Virus record (IMG/VR): IMGVR_UViG_3300044852_000015
Location: 160,001 to 224,000 of that record
Source: a virus
Lineage: Duplodnaviria; Caudoviricetes
Direction: 5' to 3' (one strand)
Length of the DNA stretch: 64,000 nt
In this document: positions 7,350 through 35,118 of the stretch, one piece after another
Layout of the letters: each line of letters begins with the position of its first letter
Position numbering within the stretch: position 1 is the first letter of the stretch
Translations under genes and position numbers: made by a program
Notes under the pieces: model-generated
Databases searched by the model: none
Seen by the model: the letters and a program-made list of their open reading frames with translations, nothing else
Told to the model about the DNA's origin: nothing

Positions 7350-7385
7350 TTGTTCAATTGGATAATATAGGTCTCAAACTTATTA
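7350..7385 (-). promoter_or_regulatory. Early (virion RNAP) promoter, TATATTAT variant
   Basis: AAGTTTGAGACCTATATTATCCAATTGAA matches the other TATATTAC sites and their flanks. Confidence 0.65.
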
Positions 7386-7467
7386 GGATGACCTGTATGC
7401 TCTCTACTCTATAACATCAGGGGTTGATGTGAACTTATACACGGAGTCGCTCACACGAGCTTACAGA

Positions 7468-8312: not shown

Positions 8313-8768
8313 TCATTTGACGCCGCACCAACCTTTCTTGGTGCCACCGTCGTACGCAACTGCAAGACCATTCTTGATCAACAGTTGCGCTATATCAATA
8401 TCGTCTACCATAACTTTGGCGACGACTCTGAAGTACTTGTCGCGATCAGGAGTCACCAGTTTAATGGTAGACGCTGAGTCGATGTACTTCTTCAGGAACA
8501 ACCGAGCTTGACGAGCCTTGGCTTTCTCAGTGTCTTGGTCAGCGACTGCTTTACAAGTACTGTGCATCTCTGGGGCGTCGATCCCCATGAGACGAATACC
8601 TACGTTTTTACCAAAGAGGTCAGGGACATTTGGGATGTTCACGTAGATGGTGTCGCCGTCGTAGACTTTCACGACTTGTTTCGGTGACAATGACAAGTCA
8701 CTATAGGCGTAGACGCTGAACGAAGCCAGAGTCAGGACCAACATTGTGAGGATATTGCGGATGTTCAT
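8313..8768 (-). CDS. Thermonuclease (SNase-family) protein with signal peptide
   Basis: VYDGDTI, IRLMGIDAPE, DKYFRVVA and LIKNGLA motifs; hydrophobic N-terminus ending VYA. Confidence 0.9.
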   Translation of the reverse strand: MNIRNILTMLVLTLASFSVYAYSDLSLSPKQVVKVYDGDTIYVNIPNVPDLFGKNVGIRLMGIDAPEMHSTCKAVADQDTEKAKARQARLFLKKYIDSASTIKLVTPDRDKYFRVVAKVMVDDIDIAQLLIKNGLAVAYDGGTKKGWCGVK

Positions 8769-9015
8769 GATTAAGCTCCAAAGGATATACAACATACTAT
8801 CCTTTGGTTTACAGAAAGGGTGCCTTCTCTCTACGTCGGGAAGGGTTATGTTCCGTTGCGCAGTACCATGACCTCGGTTGACCGAGAGAAGACATTACTC
8901 ATTTACCCCATTAGTTCCCTTATCCCTGATTACCCTGCGCGTCAGGTCGAACGTAGATAAGGTAGGCGCGACAATGTCGCCTCGTTTTACTTCTGTTCCC
9001 TAAGGAACCTTCTAA

Positions 9016-9147
9016 TGGGCATCCACCGGCAAGACTCGAACTTGCGACCTCCCGACGAACACTTGCGTTAAACCACCTTCACTACTGGAGAGTTAATGGT
9101 GGAACTCAATGCCCGACGAGTGTTCTAACCGACTGAACTACGGTGGC
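9016..9147 (-). ncRNA. tRNA-like RNA with ~70-nt extended anticodon arm
   Basis: CCACCG/CGGTGG acceptor, D arm GTTC-AGTCGGTTA-GAAC, T arm GCAAG-TTCGAGT-CTTGC; anticodon arm replaced by a long irregular hairpin. Confidence 0.75.
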
Positions 9148-9176
9148 GACTACAACTTAAACTGGTGGTGTGACGA

Positions 9177-9398
9177 CTAGTTCACCGGACGCAACTTGGA
9201 ATCGGGCTTCAGATCAATCACGGGCAGGAAGCCTGCACCATCACTGACGTTAAAACCCAGTCCACGAGTTGCGTTGTCGGGATTGGTGTACAGTCGCACA
9301 ACGGATGCAAAGGGTTCCTTGGGTGTGGACAACCAGTACCAGCCGTCTGGGGCGGTAGCTGGGTCAACAAACAAATCTACATCTTCAGGCTTGCTCAT
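9177..9398 (-). CDS. Hypothetical protein
   Basis: Start reassigned to MSKPEDV after an AAGGG RBS; the longer listed ORF overlaps tRNA-Ser. Confidence 0.65.
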   Translation of the reverse strand: MSKPEDVDLFVDPATAPDGWYWLSTPKEPFASVVRLYTNPDNATRGLGFNVSDGAGFLPVIDLKPDSKLRPVN

Positions 9399-9421
9399 CA
9401 ACGTACCCTTATCTATCAAAT

Positions 9422-9509
9422 TGGCGGAAGAACAGAGATTCGAACTCTGGGGGCTGTTACACCCGACGGTTTTCAAGACCGTTGCCATAAACCACTCGGC
9501 CATCCTTCC
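9422..9509 (-). tRNA. tRNA-Ser (TGA)
   Basis: Cloverleaf, ACGGT-CTTGAAA-ACCGT, long variable arm, G73 and encoded CCA. Confidence 0.95.
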
Positions 9510-9514
9510 TAAAA

Positions 9515-9735
9515 CAAGCCTCGATACTGTTCCTCGAGGAAGTCACCGTACAGCCAAGGCGTTAGCTGTAATCCATTGGGAACTGAGCTAGAGCCGAATG
9601 GAACTCGGAATCAGCAAGCTCACTCCATCCACCTAGGACGGAGCAACACACCACTATAAGCGCAGCGAGGGTTAGCTCGCACCGCAGTGGGTGAGGTTGG
9701 GCGACACCAGGGCAGGCGCTCGGTGTACTGTGGGC
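9515..9735 (-). ncRNA. Structured RNA candidate (~220 nt)
   Basis: No ORF; run of hairpins including GCTCCGTCC/GGATGGAGT, TACAGCTAA/TTGGCTGTA and CCTCGA/TCGAGG. Confidence 0.45.
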
Positions 9736-9831
9736 TTAAGCCTTAGCTCGAGCCATCAACTTTAACAAGCCTTTCGCCAAGGGCTTGGTCTTCACCAGAC
9801 GGCGAGGACTATAGAACGGGAATCCAGGCAT
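9736..9831 (-). CDS. 31-aa basic peptide MPGFPFYSPRRLVKTKPLAKGLLKLMARAKA
   Basis: AAGGAG RBS 7 nt before ATG; below the ORF track cut-off. Confidence 0.55.
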   Translation of the reverse strand: MPGFPFYSPRRLVKTKPLAKGLLKLMARAKA

Positions 9832-9849
9832 CGCTGTTCTCCTTGAATG

Positions 9850-9938
9850 TGGCAGTAGATGAGAGATTCGAACTCTCGAGGCCCGAAGACCTATACCCTT
9901 AGCAGGGGTACTCCTTAAGCCATCTCGGACAATCTACT
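9850..9938 (-). tRNA. tRNA-Ser (GCT)
   Basis: TACCC-CTGCTAA-GGGTA, variable arm with TTCG loop, G73 and CCA. Confidence 0.95.
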
Positions 9939-9959
9939 GTAGTGCTTCGATCATTACCC

Positions 9960-10090
9960 GGTGTGCGACGTGTTGTATTTAGACAGCTCGGTGTCCCTGC
10001 CAGGATTTCGGGTTGTACCTGGAATGCTACCTTGGAGGGTAGAGTTATACCTTTCGGCGTTTTTAACTATAGGGACTGTTCTATCGCACC
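9960..10090 (-). ncRNA. Multi-branched structured RNA candidate (~130 nt)
   Basis: GTGCGA/TCGCAC closing stem; GTCCCT/AGGGAC encloses three hairpins, one ending GCC-GAAA-GGT. Confidence 0.5.
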
Positions 10091-10101
10091 ACTGATCGAA
10101 T

Positions 10102-10171
10102 TGCTTTATCGGGAATCGAACCCGAGTGAGCCGCCTGTGTGGCAGCCGTTCTACCATTGAACTATAAAGCG
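10102..10171 (-). ncRNA. Atypical tRNA (Gly-like body, aberrant anticodon loop CACACAG, no CCA)
   Basis: D arm GTTC-AATGGTA-GAAC, T arm TCGGG-TTCGATT-CCCGA; A33 in place of U33; C1:A72 mismatch. Confidence 0.7.
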
Positions 10172-10175
10172 TGCT

Positions 10176-10251
10176 TGGCTGGGATAGCAGAACTCGAATC
10201 TGCGACATCTTGATTAACAGTCAAGCGCTCTACCAACTGAGCTATATCCCA
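10176..10251 (-). tRNA. tRNA-Asn (GTT)
   Basis: CTTGA-CTGTTAA-TCAAG, G73, CCA; 76 nt. Confidence 0.95.
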
Positions 10252-10258
10252 ATAAAAC

Positions 10259-10441
10259 TTAGAACACCTTCAGGCGTTCGTTGACCTTGATCTCGCGATC
10301 GTCGTAGACAACACGATCAGCGGACTGACCATCTTGCAGGACGAACTTCTCGTGCACTTCGCCAGTAACGCGGTTCACGATAACCACTTCGACTTCTTTA
10401 TCGGAAGAGCAGTGGGCATGGGTAATGACGGTGGTAGTCAT
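10259..10441 (-). CDS. Small hypothetical phage protein
   Basis: 60-aa ORF with AAGGAG RBS and strong codon bias. Confidence 0.75.
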   Translation of the reverse strand: MTTTVITHAHCSSDKEVEVVIVNRVTGEVHEKFVLQDGQSADRVVYDDREIKVNERLKVF

Positions 10442-10450
10442 GACGACTCC

Positions 10451-11269
10451 TTATTGAGGACGGCGGTTGTAGTTCACAACCTTGACTTCGAGTTCAATGA
10501 ACAACTCCATCGGGTAATCGTCCGGGAGGTTCACCGACACCGAAGTATTGAAGGTTGCCGGGTTGATACCGATGCTGAACGGGGCTTTGGCAATGTTGCC
10601 CAACCAGCCGTTGATGATCCACTCGCGCTGATGGAGAATAGGTCGTGAATGGTTGATTGCAACCTCCACACCGTCACGGGTGACGATGCGGATCAGCTTG
10701 ATGGACTCAATGGAGTCAGTCAAGTCTGTGTCTTTACCGAGGGCTTGAATCAAGCCATGGAGGTTCATACGGGAACCATCCTTCAGCGGGATGCGAACCA
10801 CGTCAGGACCTAGAGCTTCCACAACCTCTTCCAGGATCTGCCAGTCGTCAGCCAGTTGATCCGACTGTGCCGGAATCCACGGAGTGAACATCCCCTGAGC
10901 AGTTTTCATGCCGATCCATGGGGCGTAGGTCACGTTGATGTCAGCGCCCAAGATGCGAGCACCAACGTCGTAATGTCCAGCACCAACATACACCAGCCAC
11001 ATGTTCTTACCGTTCCACGAAGGACGGGTAACGCGCTTGCCTTGCTTCAGAGCTTCGATAGCGAGACCGAAGTTCAGAGCGTTGCACGGACGGTAGCTGT
11101 CCTCGAACACGTCTTTAGGCGACCAGGACTGGTGACCGTTGTCGTATTCCACAAGGTAGCCTTCATCGGCACCGTTTTCGTCAGCGGGAAGTTCCCAGCC
11201 TTTGAGTTGGTTGTAGTCCAACCGAGACATCGGAGTTCCGATAACCTTCTTGGTACCAATGTAGTTCAT
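10451..11269 (-). CDS. DUF2829 (Tad2-like) domain protein with extra N- and C-terminal regions
   Basis: NFGLAIEALKQGKRVTRPSWNGKNMW...PWIPAQSDQLADDW is the DUF2829 signature; preceded by the common YIGTK...EGYLVEY...SWSPKDVFE domain. Confidence 0.8.
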   Translation of the reverse strand: MNYIGTKKVIGTPMSRLDYNQLKGWELPADENGADEGYLVEYDNGHQSWSPKDVFEDSYRPCNALNFGLAIEALKQGKRVTRPSWNGKNMWLVYVGAGHYDVGARILGADINVTYAPWIGMKTAQGMFTPWIPAQSDQLADDWQILEEVVEALGPDVVRIPLKDGSRMNLHGLIQALGKDTDLTDSIESIKLIRIVTRDGVEVAINHSRPILHQREWIINGWLGNIAKAPFSIGINPATFNTSVSVNLPDDYPMELFIELEVKVVNYNRRPQ

Positions 11270-11289
11270 GTTATCTACCTTGAATGAAT

Positions 11290-11370
11290 GAGGGTCCCCC
11301 TACCGGATTCGAACCGATGCTCGCTACCCACGAAGGGCGGCAGCTCTAACCGACTGAGCTTAAGGGCGAC
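11290..11370 (-). ncRNA. Atypical tRNA (Glu-like stems, ambiguous anticodon, no CCA)
   Basis: D arm GCTC-AGTCGGTTA-GAGC, T arm ATCGG-TTCGAAT-CCGGT; irregular acceptor GTCGCCCT/AGGGGGAC; anticodon arm GCCGCCC-TTCGT-GGGTAGC. Confidence 0.65.
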
Positions 11371-11377
11371 ATTAAAA

Positions 11378-11539
11378 CTAGCAAACCATCACAGGGACGG
11401 GAATGCCTTGTTCTTTGCAAACACGCTCAAGGTTCTCCTGAGCATCTTGCCATTGTTTGATCCTCGCAAGGGTTTCCTCACGAGACTGGGGCTTGATCTT
11501 GGAACGATCCAGATCACTTAAGCGAAATGTACGTACCAT
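11378..11539 (-). CDS. 53-aa hypothetical protein MVRTFRLSDLDRSKIK...
   Basis: AAGGAG RBS; fills the gap after the upstream gene; below the ORF track cut-off. Confidence 0.6.
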   Translation of the reverse strand: MVRTFRLSDLDRSKIKPQSREETLARIKQWQDAQENLERVCKEQGIPVPVMVC

Positions 11540-11549
11540 GACCTACTCC

Positions 11550-11801
11550 TTAATCAATAGCGATACGACCGTAAAGGGTTCGTCCGCCGACCTTGACGTC
11601 GAAGTGGTGGAAGTAACGACCGGTATCACTACCGAGCCACTTTCCAGTTCCGTCGTCTAGTTCAACTGCATAGCAATCGCCTTTCCATTTACGGATGGCT
11701 TGACTCACCTTATTACAAGAGTAAGTCACTTGCCTTGCAGAGAACGTAGGGAACAGTTGCTTAACGATCCGACGCATCGCTGCGAAGTGTCCTTCAGACA
11801 T
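11550..11801 (-). CDS. Hypothetical protein
   Basis: 83-aa ORF with AAAGGAG RBS. Confidence 0.7.
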   Translation of the reverse strand: MSEGHFAAMRRIVKQLFPTFSARQVTYSCNKVSQAIRKWKGDCYAVELDDGTGKWLGSDTGRYFHHFDVKVGGRTLYGRIAID

Positions 11802-11821
11802 TGACTGCTCTCCTTTGAATG

Positions 11822-11898
11822 TGGCGCCTCCGAACGGACTCGAACCGTCGACCCCTAGCGTGACAGGCTAGTGCTCTAACCAACTGAGCTACGGAAGC
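11822..11898 (-). tRNA. tRNA-Asp (GTC)
   Basis: CTAGC-CTGTCAC-GCTAG, G73, CCA. Confidence 0.95.
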
Positions 11899-12092
11899 GT
11901 AAACGTCCTGAGGAAGATGGACTCTGCGATCACCCAGACTGTACCTGTAGGTGCATCGCGTGTAGGCTCAAGGTTCGTGTAGACAACCATGGGCCAAGAA
12001 CAGTCTTGAGCGTGACGAGCTAGGCTTAGCACTTTAAAGCGCAACCCACTAGGAGACTTGTACTCCCGTTGTTCCTCGATACTCTCTAACAT
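11889..12092 (-). CDS. DUF1653-like small protein
   Basis: YK..SG..F.V...ARH......MVVY..L......WV.....F pattern; GAGGA RBS. Confidence 0.65.
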   Translation of the reverse strand: MLESIEEQREYKSPSGLRFKVLSLARHAQDCSWPMVVYTNLEPTRDAPTGTVWVIAESIFLRTFTLP

Positions 12093-12108
12093 GTTCTATT
12101 CCTCGAAT

Positions 12109-12363
12109 TGGTTCCGGCTTGCTTCCCACCGCTATCGTGGTTCACTAAACTCATGTGTAGCCAGACGACCCGCCGGAGAGGTCTTTAACTAGATACACCA
12201 GTATCCCTGAGGTTCCGAAGAAGGCAGGTACACGATGTATCTCCACTGGACTACGAGTAGGGTGATCCCTCCCAGCGTCTGAACGCCGAGTTAATGCTGA
12301 GGCACGCCCGTAACCGACATTCGCTCAAAGGCAAGTCTAAGTAGGCGTACAGCAAAGGAACCA
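12109..12363 (-). ncRNA. Structured RNA candidate (~255 nt)
   Basis: Ends pair (TGGTTCC..TTGCT / AGCAA..GGAACCA); internal helices GTACGCCT/GGGCGTGC, CTCGGCGT/ACGCTGGG, AGATACATC/GGTGTATCT; C(TTCG)G loop. Confidence 0.6.
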
Positions 12364-12374
12364 TAATTCTACTT

Positions 12375-12519
12375 CCCTTGCACCGAGTGGATTGCTCAGC
12401 ACTTATTTTCCCTGATCCTCCGGGACGGTGGGGACATCGACGCAGTGCCTAGTTTCCCTTCCACAGGGTTACTGGTAACGTTGTCTCACAGGGTAAAACC
12501 ATTACGTAGCCAGCAAGGG
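12375..12519 (-). ncRNA. Structured RNA candidate (~145 nt)
   Basis: CCCTTGC/GCAAGGG terminal stem, short internal hairpins, no ORF. Confidence 0.4.
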
Positions 12520-12537
12520 TCTGCGCAATGTTAAAAG

Positions 12538-12616
12538 TGGAAGAGGGAGATGGATTCGAACCATCGAATGTCAGGATCAAAACCTGATGCCTTAGGCCAG
12601 ACTTGGCGATCCCTCT
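12538..12616 (-). tRNA. tRNA-Gln (TTG)
   Basis: TCAGG-TTTTGAT-CCTGA, CCA. Confidence 0.93.
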
Positions 12617-12621
12617 AGAAA

Positions 12622-12707
12622 TGGTGGGTGAGGTAGGATTCGAACCTACGAAGCACACGGCGTCAGATTTACAATCTGATAACTTTGAACCACTTGTATA
12701 CTCACCC
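12622..12707 (-). tRNA. tRNA-Tyr (GTA)
   Basis: TCAGA-TTGTAAA-TCTGA, long variable arm, A73, CCA. Confidence 0.93.
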
Positions 12708-12716
12708 GATAAAGCG

Positions 12717-12834
12717 ACCAGTGTTGTGGGATCGAACCACTGCTAGTTCCCGGACCGCACTAGCTTTCCAATGTGCAAGGTTGACGCGTTGTCAGCTATG
12801 GCCCTACACATTGACCTCCCCGAGGCTCACTGGT
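12717..12834 (-). ncRNA. tRNA-like RNA with extended anticodon arm and long variable arm
   Basis: ACCAGTG/CACTGGT acceptor, CCTC-GGG-GAGG D arm, 12-bp CAATGTGTAGGG/CCTTGCACATTG stem, GCTAGT/ACTAGC arm, GTGG-TTCGATC-CCAC T arm. Confidence 0.7.
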
Positions 12835-12840
12835 ATAAAC

Positions 12841-12999
12841 TGATGCCCCTTTGCTGGATTTGAACCAACACCTATCCGTTCAACCGACTCCGTTTGACGG
12901 GAGAGTTTAGTTACACCCGCCCAGTCAACTCCACCTTGCGGCTCACGTTGCGAATACGAATGCTCTCGGACTGTTCTACCTGACCGAACTCTCAGGGGC
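12841..12999 (-). ncRNA. tRNA-like RNA with ~98-nt branched domain in place of the anticodon arm
   Basis: GCCCCT/AGGGGC acceptor, GTTC-GGTCAGGTA-GAAC D arm, GTCCG/CGGAT stem, GTTGG-TTCAAAT-CCAGC T arm. Confidence 0.75.
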
Positions 13000-13007
13000 G
13001 TAAACCT

Positions 13008-13160
13008 TTAAAACTCACCGCGTTCTGGGCGAGCCTTAGTAGCACCGATGCCCACAATAAACACGACTGCGAAAACGCAAAGTCCTGCTACTGGGCTAAA
13101 CGCTGCCGGAACCGCTGCCGTTAGAAGCGCGGGTACAAAAACAAACACTGCGCGCATCAT
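13008..13160 (-). CDS. 50-aa hydrophobic membrane peptide MMRAVFVFVPALL...
   Basis: AAGGAG RBS; two hydrophobic segments; below the ORF track cut-off. Confidence 0.6.
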   Translation of the reverse strand: MMRAVFVFVPALLTAAVPAAFSPVAGLCVFAVVFIVGIGATKARPERGEF

Positions 13161-13426
13161 GGCAACAACTCCTTGAAATTAACCGCTACCCCGACCTACG
13201 GAATGCAATACAACAAGTGTGTCCCAAAAGGAAAAGAAAGAAAACCCTTGGGGATGCGGTATGCAAGCGCATCATGGTAGCACACTGTTGCCGGGTCACG
13301 CTCGACTAAACCGTAATTTCACTGGTACCCGTCATGCCAGTGTATCCCTGTGAAGGGAAACTCCCCCAAAGCCGTGAAGCCCTGAGTCGTGCTGGAGTCA
13401 TTACTATCAGTCAATAACGCGTCAGT

Positions 13427-13462
13427 CTCTCAATAGATGCGTGGAGTATGTAAAATAATACG
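13427..13462 (-). promoter_or_regulatory. Candidate middle/late promoter of the RNA island
   Basis: AT-rich TTAC box followed by ATCTATTGAGAG, the same 12-mer found upstream of the phuZ operon. Confidence 0.45.
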
Positions 13463-13470
13463 TAATCTCA

Positions 13471-13502
13471 GGCAAAAAAAAAGGGTCTGGTTAGGACCCC
13501 TT
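13471..13502 (-). terminator. Long-U intrinsic terminator
   Basis: GGGTC/GACCC hairpin then T9-GCC. Confidence 0.8.
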
Positions 13503-13514
13503 GAGAAAAGCGTG

Positions 13515-13925
13515 TTACGGAATTGCAGGGAAGCCTACGATCTTAAGGATCAGGTTACGCTTGCGGCGGTACCAACCAGCGGACTTGGCAGGGAAACCTC
13601 TCTCGGTGCTCTGCTTGCGGATCTGAGGGTCATCTTCGAACAACAGGGGTACTGGGAAGTATCTCCAGTGTTTCGGTTCACCTGAGCGTACCAGAGCGTG
13701 TAGGGTGCGTTTGCTCCACTTGCTGGTAGTGATGCCAGTGATCAGTTCTTGACGGATCTCTTCGTGGTCTGCTTCGGTTGGGTAAACGGCGAAGATGTTC
13801 TTGTAATGGGCAACTGTCGTTTTGTCTTCATTGGTGGTCTTGTCCATTATAAACAAGACGCCACCGATGTCGTGGAGGGAGACGTTACCATTCTCGTACT
13901 TGTGTGTCACGAATTCTGCGGACAT
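13515..13925 (-). CDS. Hypothetical early protein
   Basis: 136-aa ORF between a TATATTAC promoter and a long-U terminator. Confidence 0.75.
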   Translation of the reverse strand: MSAEFVTHKYENGNVSLHDIGGVLFIMDKTTNEDKTTVAHYKNIFAVYPTEADHEEIRQELITGITTSKWSKRTLHALVRSGEPKHWRYFPVPLLFEDDPQIRKQSTERGFPAKSAGWYRRKRNLILKIVGFPAIP

Positions 13926-13967
13926 GATTCGGGCCTTCTAAGGTATGGGGGGATTAAAGGTAGTTCC

Positions 13968-14002
13968 TATTCATCTAGGTAATATAGATCTGAAACTATT
14001 TT
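13968..14002 (-). promoter_or_regulatory. Early promoter (TATATTAC)
   Basis: AAAATAGTTTCAGATCTATATTACCTAGATGAATA; TATATTAC is the known phiKZ early consensus. Confidence 0.8.
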
Positions 14003-14053
14003 GCTTCAACCCAAATAGAATGTAGGTACAAACTTTAATCACGGGGTGTCCAC

Positions 14054-14671
14054 ATGGGGCGTTTAGTAAATCTGCTCGAGGAAGCTGAGCTTACCTTGAC
14101 TTACAGTGCAGAAGGAATCGCTTTGCTGGATGCTAGCGAAGCGGAGGTTCCAACCAAGGATGTTTATATCCTGTTGACCGACACCAAGACCTTAGTGAGT
14201 AAGGTTAGCCGTATGGTGACAGGTGATCCGTATAACCACGTATCGCTGATGCTGTCTGAGGACTTCGACGAGGGTATCTATACCTTCAGTCTCTCAAACG
14301 GACTCAATGGCATCTTCGGTGGCTTCATGGTCGAGGATCGTAAGAACCTGAAGGGGTCACACTACTCCATGTATCGTCTCGCTGTCACCAACAGCGTCTA
14401 CGACAAGATCAAGGTTAAGGTGACTGACTACGTTAACGCGGTAGACAAAACCTCCTACAACCACCTTGGGTTGTTCAATGCGATCTTCAAGAAAGGTATC
14501 TTCAAGTCTGAGGATGGCCAAGCTGCGATCTGTTCTGAGTTCGTGGTGGAAGTACTTAAGTTCGCTGGCGTAGAACTCTTCGCCAAAAGATTAGCGAGTA
14601 CTGTAAGACCTTACGACTTGGTCAAATCCAAGCTGCTGAAGTTCTACAAGCGTGGCGTCATAAAAGGCTGA
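14054..14671 (+). CDS. Permuted papain-like (NlpC/P60, YiiX/YaeF-type) amidase/peptidase
   Basis: YNHVSL (His) near the N-terminus, YNHLGLF, and ICSEFV (Cys) near the C-terminus. Confidence 0.75.
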   Translation: MGRLVNLLEEAELTLTYSAEGIALLDASEAEVPTKDVYILLTDTKTLVSKVSRMVTGDPYNHVSLMLSEDFDEGIYTFSLSNGLNGIFGGFMVEDRKNLKGSHYSMYRLAVTNSVYDKIKVKVTDYVNAVDKTSYNHLGLFNAIFKKGIFKSEDGQAAICSEFVVEVLKFAGVELFAKRLASTVRPYDLVKSKLLKFYKRGVIKG

Positions 14672-14675
14672 ATCC

Positions 14676-14705
14676 CCGGCTCACTTCGGTGAGTCGGTTT
14701 ATGAC
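14676..14705 (+). terminator. Terminator
   Basis: CCGGCTCAC-TTCG-GTGAGTCGG followed by TTTATGACG. Confidence 0.8.
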
Positions 14706-29362: not shown

Positions 29363-31933
29363 TTAGACCCATCCGTCTTTAATAGAGACAAAGTGACTGA
29401 TGTCAACTTTGGACTCAAGGTAGAAGGCAATAGCCCGGTTCAGGAAGTTGTACTGGTAGATGTTCAACTCCACTTCGTACGACAGGTGGTGAGGGTGGAT
29501 ACTCACGTAACGAGTGTCAACGCCTAGCTTGCACGGATCGAATGCTAGCAAGTACTCGTAGTCAGCCAACCACCGCTTGATGTCCATATCACCGTAGTAC
29601 GCAGTCATCTGTTCGTCCCAGATCGCGCCATTGATCAGGTCAAACATCACCTTGCACGCAAACGGGCTAAACACCTCGTAACGCTCTGGGATGATATTTG
29701 GCACAGTGATCACAAGCTCTGGTAACTTCAGAGTCATGTAGTCGGAGAGGGCTTGGTCGATAACCCGAGACTTATTACGCAGCGAGTACGTATTCTCGTC
29801 TACCAGATTGCGCAATGGAACCACTACGTCATCAATCAGGTACGGACTACCGTTCTTCACGACATCAGTCAGATACACCCCACTATGATCCTCGGCGAAC
29901 TCAAGCTTGTCACGAGTCAGGGTTTTACCACGAACGATCATCCGCATGACTTTGTCGTCACGAATGTCGAAGCGTTTGTTACGACTGAGCAAACCGTTTT
30001 CAATGAACCCGAATTCAGCCGGTGGTTCCATTGACATGTCGTCATCCGGGAAGCCAGTCACTCGCACCACGATTTGTTGCGTGTCACCTTCCACGAGGAA
30101 CTCGCGGTTAGTCAACGTCACAAAGGGCCAGTTCAGGTAATAGTCCAACCCTTCGATCAGGGCGTGACGATTCATGAACAATTCTAGCTTGCCCATCTTG
30201 AGGTTCATGTCTTGCTTGTAGTAGTTCCCGTCACTGCGTCGCTCAGACACTTGAATGGGGAAGTAATACAACCCGTCTGGTGCAGTGATGTCCTGACTGT
30301 AGGTTACGAACTTACGGTCGTCTCGAACAGCCGTGTACCAGTTGACGCGGTCCAGCAACCAAACAACCTTGTCATCCACGAAGCCGTAGTCCACACCCTC
30401 AACCGCCGACACCCAGTTATACGACGGCGTACCAGCCACCATCGAACACTTGTAGTACCGGTAGTTGTAAACTGGGTCGATCGTGCTTTGTGCAGCGTTG
30501 TAGATCGTTTCAAGGCTATCTGAAGCAATCCCCACCAGAGCTTCGATCAAACGACACTCTTTGTTACGGGGGTTGTAGTATACCCCCGTGGTATGTGGGT
30601 AGTAGCCCAACAGTAAACCGTCCGCATCAAACTCGTAACAGGTCGACGCATTCTGCAAAGCAAAAGGCATCTTCACGAAACTGTCGTTAGCCAGAATCGT
30701 TACGGGTTGTGGCGTGTCGGCCACCAGTTTACTGATCGCGTTGTAACCGTAGGCCTTCTGCACCATCTCACGAGTGATACCAGGTCCTAGGTCGCGCATC
30801 ACCTTGGGATACATTGCTGCTTCCAAGTTGTCTGCACGCCAAACGTCCACAGTCGACTCAACCCCGAGCATGGCTTTAGGGATGTCAGTCAACGGGAGTT
30901 TGTACAACTCCTTAATGCGGGAGTTCTCATTCACCAATGGTCGTTTCCAACCAGACTCGCGAATGCACAGACGAACAGTGATGTCACCGGGATCTGACCA
31001 ACCAGGATGTGCTGCGACGAAACCAGCCACGTACGGCACTACAATCGAGTAGTCCTTGTGCGTAACCATTCGCATCGAGTCTTCCTGATTCTTGTGGTGG
31101 TACACACCCTCAAAGCGACCATTGGTCTCTTTCTTGATCAGATAGATGTCGATGTCATCACGGTAGTCAATCGTGTCCTGCTGTGCGTCTGGGTAGTGAA
31201 GCAAGTACTTACGCTTCTCATCCACCAGACTCACAAACGTTTCAAGGTCACTGATCTTCAAGTCGACCACACGACGAATCGTGGAATCGTAAACGTACTC
31301 GATCACGTCCCCAACCTTAAAGCGGTCAGGTTGGAAGTCATCAATCAGGTAGCCGTTCTTGTAAGCAAAGGTGTAACCGGTCTTTGCTCTCAACGCTTGA
31401 TACGCACGTTGATAGTTCAGCAGCTTCGCACGGTCGCCATCGTAGGTGTACCCGTTAATCAAAACGGTGTTCTCGATGTTGTACGAACGCTCAGAAGCAA
31501 AGTAGGCGTTGGAGTAGACCCGGAAGAACACGGGCTGGTTGTACAGGCTATCAAACTGCTCGTTACGCTTAATGGCGATCACGAGGTTTCGATCACCCAT
31601 CACTTGGAGATACGCCAAGTGGCGAGGAATCTGAACACCGTCGATGTTGTAGAGATCCACCATCATCTTGGCCTTGTTACAGACTTCAGAGAACGGCGTC
31701 CAAGTCTTCCACGAGTTCAACAACCCGAGGAGCTTAGGATGGATCTGTCCAATCCAGTAAACGTTAAACAGGTTAGTGCGGTCTGGCAACACGATGGTCT
31801 GCCATTCCACATCAACCAAACGAGAGATTCCGTAAGGCCCAGTGATGTGAGCCAAACGGTAGATGTATTGATAGTCCTGATCGGGAGTGCACCAGACATT
31901 GTCTAGCGCGTGCTCAATCAAGAAATCAGACAT
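29363..31933 (-). CDS. Virion structural protein (phiKZ gp27-like by synteny)
   Basis: 856-aa ORF with N-terminal NVWCTPDQD; syntenic position. Confidence 0.75.
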   Translation of the reverse strand: MSDFLIEHALDNVWCTPDQDYQYIYRLAHITGPYGISRLVDVEWQTIVLPDRTNLFNVYWIGQIHPKLLGLLNSWKTWTPFSEVCNKAKMMVDLYNIDGVQIPRHLAYLQVMGDRNLVIAIKRNEQFDSLYNQPVFFRVYSNAYFASERSYNIENTVLINGYTYDGDRAKLLNYQRAYQALRAKTGYTFAYKNGYLIDDFQPDRFKVGDVIEYVYDSTIRRVVDLKISDLETFVSLVDEKRKYLLHYPDAQQDTIDYRDDIDIYLIKKETNGRFEGVYHHKNQEDSMRMVTHKDYSIVVPYVAGFVAAHPGWSDPGDITVRLCIRESGWKRPLVNENSRIKELYKLPLTDIPKAMLGVESTVDVWRADNLEAAMYPKVMRDLGPGITREMVQKAYGYNAISKLVADTPQPVTILANDSFVKMPFALQNASTCYEFDADGLLLGYYPHTTGVYYNPRNKECRLIEALVGIASDSLETIYNAAQSTIDPVYNYRYYKCSMVAGTPSYNWVSAVEGVDYGFVDDKVVWLLDRVNWYTAVRDDRKFVTYSQDITAPDGLYYFPIQVSERRSDGNYYKQDMNLKMGKLELFMNRHALIEGLDYYLNWPFVTLTNREFLVEGDTQQIVVRVTGFPDDDMSMEPPAEFGFIENGLLSRNKRFDIRDDKVMRMIVRGKTLTRDKLEFAEDHSGVYLTDVVKNGSPYLIDDVVVPLRNLVDENTYSLRNKSRVIDQALSDYMTLKLPELVITVPNIIPERYEVFSPFACKVMFDLINGAIWDEQMTAYYGDMDIKRWLADYEYLLAFDPCKLGVDTRYVSIHPHHLSYEVELNIYQYNFLNRAIAFYLESKVDISHFVSIKDGWV

Positions 31934-32837: not shown

Positions 32838-33048
32838 TCGCTCAGGTCCCCAATGGAATGTAGGTGTAAAAGTTTACAAAACCGACATATGTACTTTAAT
32901 ACTTAGAATAGTATGATGTATTACATCGGTACGGTAACTATACCATTCAAGTCAATTCTCTCTCTAAAGGACCATGGCCTCTTAGGGATGAGAGACTGGG
33001 ATGGGTTCCCACAGCGGTAACTTAGATAGATCTATCACAGGAGCTGTT

Positions 33049-35118
33049 ATGATCAATATCAGAAACGCTGCTCCTCGCTCAATCCTGAAGGGCTTTAAAG
33101 ATGAGAGCGGTCGCGCTCCGGTTGTAGAACCGGAACAGCTTCCTTCTCACTTGGCGCACACGTTCATCTTTTCTGAACGCGGTCCGCTCTTGCCCCAACT
33201 GGTTGTCGGGGACAGCCTGACTACTACTTACGGTGCGAAATCTTTCGACTACCGTTCGAAGTTTGCCAACCACCAAACCGTGCTGGTCAACACCATCAAT
33301 GGCGAGGGCAACTCGCAGATGGTTCAACGTCTGGTTCCTGACGACGCCAAGACCGCTACACTGGTTCTCTGGCTCGACGTGGTTGCCGACGAAATCCCGC
33401 AATTCGAGCGTAACCTCGATCTGTCGTTCAAGCTTTCACCCTTGGGCGAACGCATTGCTGTTGCCGCAGGTGGCGCTCCCGTCAACGGGTACCGTGGCCG
33501 CTGGGTTGTAGAAGAACTCGAAGACGGTAAAACCCTGGGCGAACTGGATGCTAAAGTCGGCGAACTGACTTCGGTTAAAACCGGCACCCAGTCCCAGATG
33601 TACCCAATCCATGCGTTCACCGTGGCCTCCCCAGGCTCGTACGGTAACCTGGTTGGTATCCGTCTGTCTGCCCCAACCACCGAATCGTCTTCACCGATCG
33701 ACGACACCACCGTAGAAGAGGCGAAAGCCTACCTGTACCGGATCGCGATGGTTGAGCGTCCAGACGAGTTCTCTACCCCGAATGTGAAAGAAACACTTCA
33801 GGGTGAACAGTCGGTTGACTTCGCTTACAAGCCGGGCGTGATCAACTCCCGTACCGACAAGCTGGTGTCTGTTGAAGACATCTTGCTGCAATCGTGGAAC
33901 GCTCCGGCGATCAACGGTATCCCAGCAACTGTCGGCGTGATCGACGATCACCACGTTTACCACGAGAACATCGCAACTCTGCTGGCATTGTTCCAAGCCT
34001 CAGAAGAGCAGTTCGGTCTGATCTCGGATTCCGCAGACGACACGCACCTGTTCAACTTCGTGGGCGGCACCTCCATCAACAACGTTCCGTACTACTCGTT
34101 CGTCGTTGAAGGCCCGTCTACCGGTGGTGTGCTGTTGACCGAAACCTCCAGCCACTACGCTAAAGGTGGTGCTGACGGTACTCTGGACTTCGCAACCTTC
34201 GATACCCTCGTTGCTAACGCTACCGCCAACTACGGCGACCTGCCTGGCTTCGACTTCCTCGATACCGCGATCTACCCACAAAGCTGCATCTACGACACCG
34301 GTTTCACTCTGCCGACGAAGAAGAAGCTGCTGACTGTATTGGGTCGTCGTAAGGACATGTACGTTGTACTGTCTACCCAGGACGTGTCTGCCAAGCAGAA
34401 CACCCCGTCGGAAGAATCGAGCATCGCCGTCGCTCTGCGTACTGCGGCTCGCATGTATCCGGAATCGGAGATCTACGGTACGTCGGTTTGCCGTGCGATC
34501 GTGATCGGTCACTCTGGCTACCTGATCAACTCCCAATGGACCAAACTGACCCCGCTGACCATCGAGTTCGCGGCCAAGTCGGCTCGTTACATGGGTGCTG
34601 GCAATGGTATCTGGAAATCGGCTGCATCGTTCTCGATCTCCCCTGCCAACCAAGTCACCATGTTCCGCAACGTAAACGCCAGCTTCAAGAAAGTTGACGT
34701 CCGTTCGCAGGACTGGGAAAACGGTCTGGTATGGGTACAGAACTACGATCGCCGTAGCCTGTTCTTCCCTGCGTTCCAGACTGTCTATGATGACGACTCC
34801 TCGATCCTCAACAGCTTCTTCAACATGGCTGTGGGTGTTGAACTGGAGAAAGTTGCAGACCGCGCTTGGCGTGATCTGACCGGCATCGACGGACTGACTC
34901 CGGACCAGTTCATTGCTCGTTCCAACCGCATCATCAGTGAAAACGTTGCTGGCCGTTTCGACGGTCGTGTAGTGATCGAGGTGGAAACCATCTTGACTGC
35001 TGCCGATACCCAGCGCGGTTACTCCTGGTCGTGCAACATCATCATGTACGGTAACAACATGATGACCGTTGGTTCGTTCACCATCGTTGCCCGTCGTCGT
35101 GAGGACCTCGCACAATGA
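33049..35118 (+). CDS. Tail sheath protein (phiKZ gp29-like)
   Basis: ~689 aa; NAAP...G.KDES N-terminus, YDTGF, PES..YGT...RA; AGGAG RBS; followed by the tube gene. Confidence 0.88.
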   Translation: MINIRNAAPRSILKGFKDESGRAPVVEPEQLPSHLAHTFIFSERGPLLPQLVVGDSLTTTYGAKSFDYRSKFANHQTVLVNTINGEGNSQMVQRLVPDDAKTATLVLWLDVVADEIPQFERNLDLSFKLSPLGERIAVAAGGAPVNGYRGRWVVEELEDGKTLGELDAKVGELTSVKTGTQSQMYPIHAFTVASPGSYGNLVGIRLSAPTTESSSPIDDTTVEEAKAYLYRIAMVERPDEFSTPNVKETLQGEQSVDFAYKPGVINSRTDKLVSVEDILLQSWNAPAINGIPATVGVIDDHHVYHENIATLLALFQASEEQFGLISDSADDTHLFNFVGGTSINNVPYYSFVVEGPSTGGVLLTETSSHYAKGGADGTLDFATFDTLVANATANYGDLPGFDFLDTAIYPQSCIYDTGFTLPTKKKLLTVLGRRKDMYVVLSTQDVSAKQNTPSEESSIAVALRTAARMYPESEIYGTSVCRAIVIGHSGYLINSQWTKLTPLTIEFAAKSARYMGAGNGIWKSAASFSISPANQVTMFRNVNASFKKVDVRSQDWENGLVWVQNYDRRSLFFPAFQTVYDDDSSILNSFFNMAVGVELEKVADRAWRDLTGIDGLTPDQFIARSNRIISENVAGRFDGRVVIEVETILTAADTQRGYSWSCNIIMYGNNMMTVGSFTIVARRREDLAQ

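Follow-up and report, generated by a model that had tools for sequence, protein, structure and literature searches.

Directly upstream of the tRNA-Tyr gene of an uncultured jumbo phage lies a real, conserved and structured RNA gene that has the acceptor, D-like, variable and T arms of a tRNA, and in which a long base-paired rod stands where the anticodon arm would be. This element occupies nt 12717–12834 on the minus strand of the window (i.e. the whole stretch of 64,000 nt that was analysed in the current study). The reading favoured here, with a probability of roughly 0.6, is that it specifies a stable, non-decoding tRNA-framed RNA, which would be excised from a tRNA polycistron by tRNA-maturation enzymes and whose invariant loops would act on a putative partner.

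The phage genome and its tRNA array

The window belongs to an IMG/VR virus record of 238 kb, which carries genes for a PhuZ tubulin, a jumbo-phage DNA polymerase and virion proteins, and so derives from a nucleus-forming jumbo phage. The nearest cultured relative is Xanthomonas phage Xoo-sp14, with ~51% identity in one virion protein. ARAGORN predicts eight tRNA genes in the window, all of them on the minus strand, between nt 9422 and 12707, and the element is found on this same strand, immediately before tRNA-Tyr. Among the RNA genes of this island are also protein-coding genes, at nt 10451–11269 and 8313–8795, which specify a Tad2-like anti-Thoeris domain (PF11195, 81.9 bits) and a staphylococcal-nuclease domain (PF00565).

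A CCA end is encoded by six of the eight true tRNAs. The tRNA-Val(CAC) gene (nt 10102–10170) is without an encoded CCA, unlike those six, and tRNA-Arg(UCG) (nt 11292–11369), which scores 25.2 bits and so falls below the Rfam threshold, ends in GACCC instead of CCA.

Upstream of the element, the minus strand of nt 12841–12999 holds another tRNA-framed RNA, with an acceptor stem, a normal D arm (GUUC/GAAC), a T arm with the loop UUCAAAU, and an insert of ~85 nt at the site of the anticodon loop. It is kept in the close relatives L002, L003 and L004.

Fold and parts of the element

The arms named in the original prediction, which had been made from the sequence of the window, are all present on the minus strand, and the MFE fold of nt 12834–12717 is the same five-arm cloverleaf, at −45.6 kcal/mol (z = −2.70). 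The plus-strand fold is weaker (z = −1.67). The features, beginning with the whole molecule and then running 5' to 3' along the RNA, are as follows.

12717–12834, minus strand: whole tRNA-shaped RNA, 118 nt including both terminal acceptor bases (MFE cloverleaf, covariance model R1, ten homologous sequences)
12835–12843, minus strand: 5' leader or spacer UCAGUUUAU, of the UUUA type, after the upstream tRNA-framed RNA
12828–12834, minus strand: 5' strand of the acceptor stem, ACCAGUG, forming 7 bp with nt 12717–12723
12814–12826, minus strand: D-like hairpin, (G)CCUC-GGG-GAGG(U), with a 5-bp stem and a 3-nt loop of the form NGG (GGG in the window)
12769–12813, minus strand: long arm replacing the anticodon arm, with a 12-bp stem, a bulge or internal loop CCAUAGC, and the hairpin UGAC-AACGC-GUCA, the tip (12782–12801) being nearly invariant
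12765–12768, minus strand: GAAA linker from the long arm to the variable arm, invariant in all ten members
12742–12764, minus strand: variable arm GCUAGU/ACUAGC, with a 6-bp stem and the 11-nt loop GCGGUCCGGGA, the loop being invariant in all ten members
12726–12740, minus strand: T arm GUGG-UUCGAUC-CCAC, with a 4-bp stem and invariant UUCGA
[quoted passage not shown]
12708–12716, minus strand: 3' trailer or spacer, C GCUUUAUC, reaching the 5' end of tRNA-Tyr and without CCA
12622–12707, minus strand: tRNA-Tyr(GUA), predicted by ARAGORN, the downstream neighbour in nine of the ten members

A single linker base separates the 5' strand of the acceptor stem from the D-like hairpin. In the long arm of the window, the two strands of the 12-bp stem are CAAUGUGUAGGG and CCUUGCACAUUG, and the arm ends with a 7-nt/1-nt internal loop followed by a 4-bp hairpin with the loop AACGC. 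The family consensus of this arm is slightly different: 9 bp are followed by a G.U/G.G position and a further 3 bp, beyond which come a 6-nt bulge (CAUAGC) and a 4-bp helix capped by a pentaloop. All ten members have this stem of 12–13 layers with its bulge and pentaloop hairpin instead of a 5-bp stem and a 7-nt anticodon loop, and there is no anticodon loop in any of them.

T loops of 7 nt are found in three members, and the other seven have 6-nt loops. Seven of the ten members also have a U-A pair between columns 13 and 116 of the alignment, which forms an eighth layer of the acceptor. The layers of the acceptor/T branch are seven Watson-Crick pairs, this U-A pair (7/10 members), an A.R position and four Watson-Crick pairs, and the branch can be read either as 8/5 or as a bulged 8/4. 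The discriminator base is C, U or A across the ten members, never G, and the bases that follow it are GCU, not CCA; an encoded CCA is found in no member (n = 10). The absence of both a 7-nt anticodon loop and a CCA end, as had been described for the element, is borne out by its sequence. So is the close packing of the element, said to lie within 10 nt of both neighbours, as it is separated by 9 nt from tRNA-Tyr (8 if counted after the discriminator base) and by another 9 nt from the tRNA-framed RNA on its upstream side.

Homologues and covariation

Homologues were sought by a scan with the PhuZ protein, by exact-motif scans of IMG/VR and by a scan of metagenome contigs, and members were confirmed with covariance model R1. 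Nine were found, making ten sequences with that of the window, and all are from uncultured, PhuZ-encoding jumbo phages. Scores for the ten range from 138 to 154 bits. The element of the window scores 145.7 bits and is single-copy in the 238-kb genome, and each genome searched likewise has one copy. Four of the members (L094, L099, L100, L101) were contributed by the metagenome-contig scan. Relaxed motif scans of IMG/VR returned no member beyond those already known, and the other motif matches in the IMG/VR, metagenome-contig and genome-contig scans were found to be due to chance, either by model R1 or by inspection. A motif match in L159 is also due to chance. The sequence was not found in any GenBank phage. 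A search of 80 PhuZ loci produced matches only in two carriers that were already known, and the element is missing from 75 further PhuZ loci and from Xoo-sp14, a phage that has no tRNAs whatever.

In the ten-sequence alignment, which was fitted to model R1, 97.9% of pair cells are standard pairs and 15 of the 38 pairs are compensated on both sides. None of 500 shuffled controls reached the observed pairing and compensation, and when the partners were slid by 1–3 columns only 25–50% of cells were paired. The result was no different in an earlier alignment of five sequences made with MAFFT, and RNAalifold on its own predicts the same five arms. Compensated pairs occur in five of the six helices, namely the acceptor, D, long, variable and T stems, while the 4-bp apical hairpin of the long arm never varies. 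In the acceptor stem, 97% of cells are paired and three pairs are compensated (A-U/G-C, C-G/G-U) across the ten sequences; the D-like stem is paired in 100% of cells, with two compensated pairs (C-G/U-A swaps) and two invariant G residues in the loop. Compensation affects six of the 12 pairs of the long-arm stem, and the upper helix of this arm is supported by a series from G-C through G-U to A-U at the pair formed by columns 38 and 60. Two pairs are compensated in the variable-arm stem (A-U to G-C, and G-C to A-U) and two in the T stem (U-A/G-C/C-G, and C-G/G-C).

The strand can be read from the same alignment. Of the 380 pair cells, 28 are G.U, and these would be A.C mismatches on the opposite strand, which indicates that the RNA is the transcript of the minus strand, the strand of the tRNAs.

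Mean pairwise identity among the ten members is 85.7%, with a minimum of 73.7%. Two parts are nearly invariant in all of them: the tip of the long arm (GGGCC AUAGC UGAC AACGC GUCA), and the stretch that runs from the GAAA linker through the variable-arm loop. Such invariant loops, borne on covarying stems, are likely to be the business end of the molecule. The most distant carriers, L143 and L149, have PhuZ proteins that are just 63–67% identical to that of the window. All ten members belong to one narrow clade, so the invariance of the loops may partly reflect a short divergence time.

Neighbouring genes in related phages

A tRNA-Tyr(GUA) gene lies downstream of the element in nine of the ten members, always at a distance of exactly 9 nt. 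This slot is filled by three different Tyr alleles (window, nt 12622–12707; L094, nt 2849–2932; L013, nt 7374–7458), which are only ~66% identical to each other. In the remaining member, L004 (nt 14253–14275), tRNA-Tyr has been cleanly deleted and tRNA-Gln is also missing, while the element is kept. The L004 sequence just past the element (AUUUACGAUCC) is that which follows tRNA-Tyr in L002 and L008.

Other tRNA genes of the island fall into two groups when relatives are compared. Those for tRNA-Asn, tRNA-Ser(GCU) and tRNA-Gln share 63–71% identity, and those for tRNA-Asp and tRNA-Val share 88–100%. Judged from these identities, the tRNA genes of the island are swapped like cassettes between relatives, and since tRNA-Asn, tRNA-Ser(GCU) and tRNA-Gln are also exchanged, the turnover of tRNA-Tyr is not special. 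The element itself is inherited vertically. Its upstream neighbour differs in the more distant carriers: BLAST finds no match to the tRNA-framed RNA of nt 12841–12999 in L143 or L149, where other tRNA-framed or structured RNAs are found upstream of the element.

Phage L142 (IMGVR_UViG_3300011799_000001) has the island (nt 13500–14700), but the element, tRNA-Tyr and tRNA-Gln are all absent from it. The PhuZ protein of L142 is 63% identical to that of the window, the same as for the PhuZ of L143. The existence of this sister phage means that the element is dispensable in at least one lineage.

Resemblance to tRNA and candidate identities

ARAGORN makes no tRNA or tmRNA call on the native element. 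With its default settings, however, ARAGORN does recognise a tRNA that has a long variable arm once the long arm is cut back to its first 5 bp and closed with a 7-nt loop, and also when the long arm is swapped for the anticodon arm of the phage tRNA-Tyr. The frame, consisting of the acceptor, D, variable and T arms, is therefore of tRNA grade, and it is the long arm alone that blocks recognition. At the elbow of the molecule, UUCGA of the T loop and GG of the D loop are invariant; the T stem, however, has only 4 bp, the T loop has 6 nt in seven of ten members, the D loop has 3 nt, and 1–2 unpaired nucleotides separate the T stem from the acceptor. With no anticodon loop, no encoded CCA and a variable discriminator, the RNA is not a decoder, and probably is not aminoacylated. 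That the window holds a tRNA-shaped RNA unable to decode, situated within a tRNA array, had been proposed from the sequence; this is now backed by the covariation and by the truncation test with ARAGORN. The word 'mimic', as a statement of function, is something that we infer, and the same applies to the processing of a polycistron.

A comparison with 4227 Rfam families, at gathering score and with E ≤ 10 on nt 9000–14000, gave no match on the element, the families for tRNA (RF00005), tRNA-Sec, tmRNA and YrlA being included. The check that had been suggested for the prediction, using the Rfam covariance models for tRNA, tRNA-Sec and Y RNA, was accordingly negative, even at E ≤ 10.

Several more specific identities were considered and rejected. 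A tmRNA is contradicted by ARAGORN, which finds none, and there is no conserved reading frame. A small reading frame of 22 codons begins at an AUG in the long stem, but that AUG is absent from the relatives. An intron-containing tRNA does not fit either, because the stem is continuous, there is no bulge-helix-bulge, a group I intron would not fit into an RNA of this length, and there is no segment whose removal would leave an anticodon loop. A passing likeness between the variable loop and motifs of SRP or Y RNA is not supported, as there was no Rfam match. YrlA (RF02553) is a non-coding RNA of bacteria and phages in which a tRNA-like module is joined to a long helix; it ends in that long, Ro-binding helix and its tRNA-like part is closed, whereas the element ends in an acceptor stem. 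There was no RF02553 match on the stretch, and the phage genome encodes no TROVE/Ro protein (PF05731). The element is not a tRNA, a tRNA-Sec, a Y RNA or a tmRNA.

Comparison with known tRNA-like RNAs

Stable tRNA-like RNAs encoded in phage tRNA clusters, such as species 1 and 2 of T4 and RNA1 and RNA2 of T5, have been known since the 1970s–80s. In the T5 record (NC_005859.1), RNA1 (nt 30501–30644, 144 nt) and RNA2 (nt 32959–33083, 125 nt) are annotated as 'tRNA-like stable RNA with unknown functions', and there are four other stable RNAs too, all inside the tRNA region. Like the element, RNA1 and RNA2 lie within a phage tRNA cluster and on the tRNA strand. In the MFE fold, each is closed by an acceptor-like stem and has a D-like hairpin and a canonical T arm, and in each the anticodon loop gives way to an enlarged central arm; RNA1 shares the long variable arm as well. 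They differ in having 5-bp T stems and normal D loops. T5 belongs to the Demerecviridae, whereas the element is from a PhuZ-encoding jumbo phage, and the hosts also differ. The T5 molecules have been seen as stable RNAs in cells, while the element is predicted from sequence.

In T4, rnaC (species 1, 139 nt) and rnaD (species 2, 119 nt) specify small stable RNAs that lie beside the tRNA genes and on the same strand, and their roles are not known (PMC3014915). The fold of rnaC is similar to that of the element in its terminal stem, long central arm, variable-arm-like hairpin and canonical T arm (UUCGAAU), but has no D hairpin, and the fold of rnaD is not a cloverleaf. Model R1, run with filters off, found nothing in the T5 region and nothing at the T4 RNA genes, and the element consequently represents a new, unrelated family of a known descriptive kind. 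It joins the phage tRNA-like stable RNAs in this descriptive sense and not as part of a homologous family. No description of such RNAs in jumbo phages was found in the literature, in a search whose coverage left out most subscription journals.

The existence of an unrelated family of the same design in nucleus-forming jumbo phages suggests that this design, in which a tRNA frame that serves for excision and stability bears sequence-specific arms, arose more than once and is useful. Because covariation separates the stems, where only shape is kept, from the two invariant loops, the family is a clean test object, and the loops are obvious targets for mutation and for pull-down. Located as it is in an RNA island rich in counter-defence, it offers a good entry point to an old and unexplained class.

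A loose likeness to tRNA-Sec and allo-tRNAs had also been remarked upon, and this holds for the frame only, with its short D loop, long D stem, long variable arm and a branch that can be read as 8/5 or bulged 8/4, and not at the level of an Rfam match. tRNA-Sec, allo-tRNAs and selC* share with the element the long variable arm and the long D stem with a very short D loop. In these tRNAs the acceptor/T branch is shifted from 7/5, and includes 8/4 with one bulged nucleotide (PMC5389517; PMC7609411). The range of branches that would indicate membership is 8/5, 9/4, 8/4 or 9/3; the 8/5 reading of the element recalls bacterial tRNA-Sec, and the bulged 8/4 reading recalls minor tRNA-Sec, selC* and allo-tRNAs. 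Some of these tRNAs are found in the tRNA clusters of phages and in polycistrons made up of irregular tRNAs, and for some a role outside translation is suspected (PMC5389517; PMC7609411). All of them, however, keep a 7-nt anticodon loop on a stem of 5–6 bp (PMC7609411), a loop that none of the ten members has, and the element further differs in matching neither the tRNA nor the tRNA-Sec family of Rfam and in its unconserved discriminator. The resemblance is one of frame, not of membership.

Proposed mechanism

In the favoured reading, the minus strand would be transcribed as part of the polycistronic tRNA array of the phage. [quoted passage not shown] The expected product is a discrete, L-shaped molecule of ~118–120 nt, which could not read codons, because a rod of ~20 base-pair layers takes the position of the anticodon loop. 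Its activity would reside in the two invariant parts, one being the tip of the long arm, with its bulge and hairpin, and the other the 11-nt variable-arm loop, and these would most likely bind a specific protein or RNA partner. Complements of the loops, taken as possible antisense targets, gave only chance-level matches in the 238-kb phage genome.

Transcription and processing are what we infer from position and shape only. The spacers on either side are single-stranded, 8–9 nt long and carry a UUUA motif, as is also seen before most true tRNAs of the cluster, and in a fold of the 388-nt precursor the three units close independently. Given its place in the array and its shape, RNase P and the enzymes of 3' maturation could plausibly act on the RNA. 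This argument draws on the established processing of tRNAs in bacteria, to which the maturation of T4 tRNAs without an encoded CCA is comparable. [quoted passage not shown]

Alternative explanations

One alternative is that the RNA serves as a decoy or inhibitor, an imitation of a class II tRNA (i.e. one with a long variable arm) that would titrate a host factor acting on tRNAs, for example a defence enzyme that cleaves or modifies them. In that case, the lack of an anticodon loop would make the decoy itself uncleavable. This is a prediction that we regard as unlikely. A tRNA-grade frame without an anticodon loop is what it would call for, and the island, with its Tad2-like anti-Thoeris protein and with tRNA genes swapped between relatives, is as expected if tRNAs are under pressure. 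The presence of tRNA-Tyr as the next gene in nine of ten members, across three Tyr alleles, can be counted in its favour, but this adjacency may merely be inherited, and L004 retains the element without tRNA-Tyr. Furthermore, conservation is strongest in the variable loop and at the long-arm tip, rather than in generic features of tRNAs, which argues for a specific partner and against general tRNA mimicry. In a fuller version, the RNA would resemble a tRNA with a long variable arm without being open to cleavage, would capture, by way of its invariant loops, a tRNA-directed immune nuclease of the host or some other tRNA-binding factor, and would act as an RNA counter-defence in an island that has an anti-Thoeris sponge and rapidly exchanged tRNA genes. 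This, too, is quite unlikely as it stands, but if the partner did prove to be a tRNA-directed defence enzyme, the element would represent a new class of RNA anti-defence.

It is distinctly improbable that the element has no function in trans and is simply a processing module or insulator, a unit recognised by RNase P that would aid the folding or maturation of its neighbours, chiefly tRNA-Tyr, or guard their ends. The constant spacing of 9 nt to tRNA-Tyr in nine of the ten members would suit such a role, as would the fact that each module closes on its own when the precursor is folded. The remaining true tRNAs in the array nevertheless manage without a module of this type, the element persists in L004 despite the deletion of tRNA-Tyr, and such a role does not account for the invariance of the variable loop of 11 nt and of the long-arm tip.

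Charging by SerRS, which had been raised because this enzyme reads the long variable arm, finds no support here. In its general form the proposal is of an unconventional tRNA that would receive CCA, be charged by a synthetase that ignores the anticodon (of the SerRS, LeuRS or AlaRS type), and serve as an aminoacyl donor outside decoding or in some ribosomal use. An acceptor/T minihelix could be given a CCA end by the CCA-adding enzyme of the host. The Sec- or allo-like frame with its long variable arm is compatible with the idea, and allo-tRNA-like RNAs that are possibly regulatory have been described (PMC5389517). The discriminator of the element, however, is not conserved (C, U or A), in contrast to the G73 or U73 that is named for allo-tRNA Ser identity (PMC5389517), and there is no G3:U70. 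The element encodes no CCA, in contrast to six of the eight true tRNAs, and the phage itself encodes no CCA-adding enzyme. An arm of ~20 layers is also incompatible with ribosomal decoding, the anticodon stems of natural tRNAs being 5–6 bp (PMC7609411). A chargeable tRNA is very improbable on this evidence.

A decaying tRNA pseudogene, or a chance fold without function, would explain why neither ARAGORN nor Rfam makes a call and why the element is absent from L142 and the closest cultured phage, but this is scarcely credible and is effectively refuted by the covariation, as five of six helices show compensation, the loops are invariant, and the gene is retained as a single copy in ten genomes among which PhuZ identity falls to 63–67%.

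Other conserved sequences of the island

Further upstream, on the minus strand of nt 13181–13250, is a block that includes CCGUAGGUCGGGGUAGCGGUU and a preceding U/C-rich run. It is conserved in L149 (at about nt 13510–13578) and partly in L143 (at about nt 13541–13560), and in both of these phages it directly precedes the first tRNA-framed RNA of the island. The block may be a promoter or another RNA motif.

Between tRNA-Gln and tRNA-Asp there is a stretch of ~640 nt (nt 11899–12537, minus strand) that has no ORF of at least 80 aa, and much of which is 82–95% identical in relatives. Taken together, these two properties of the sequence suggest that the stretch holds further non-coding RNA.
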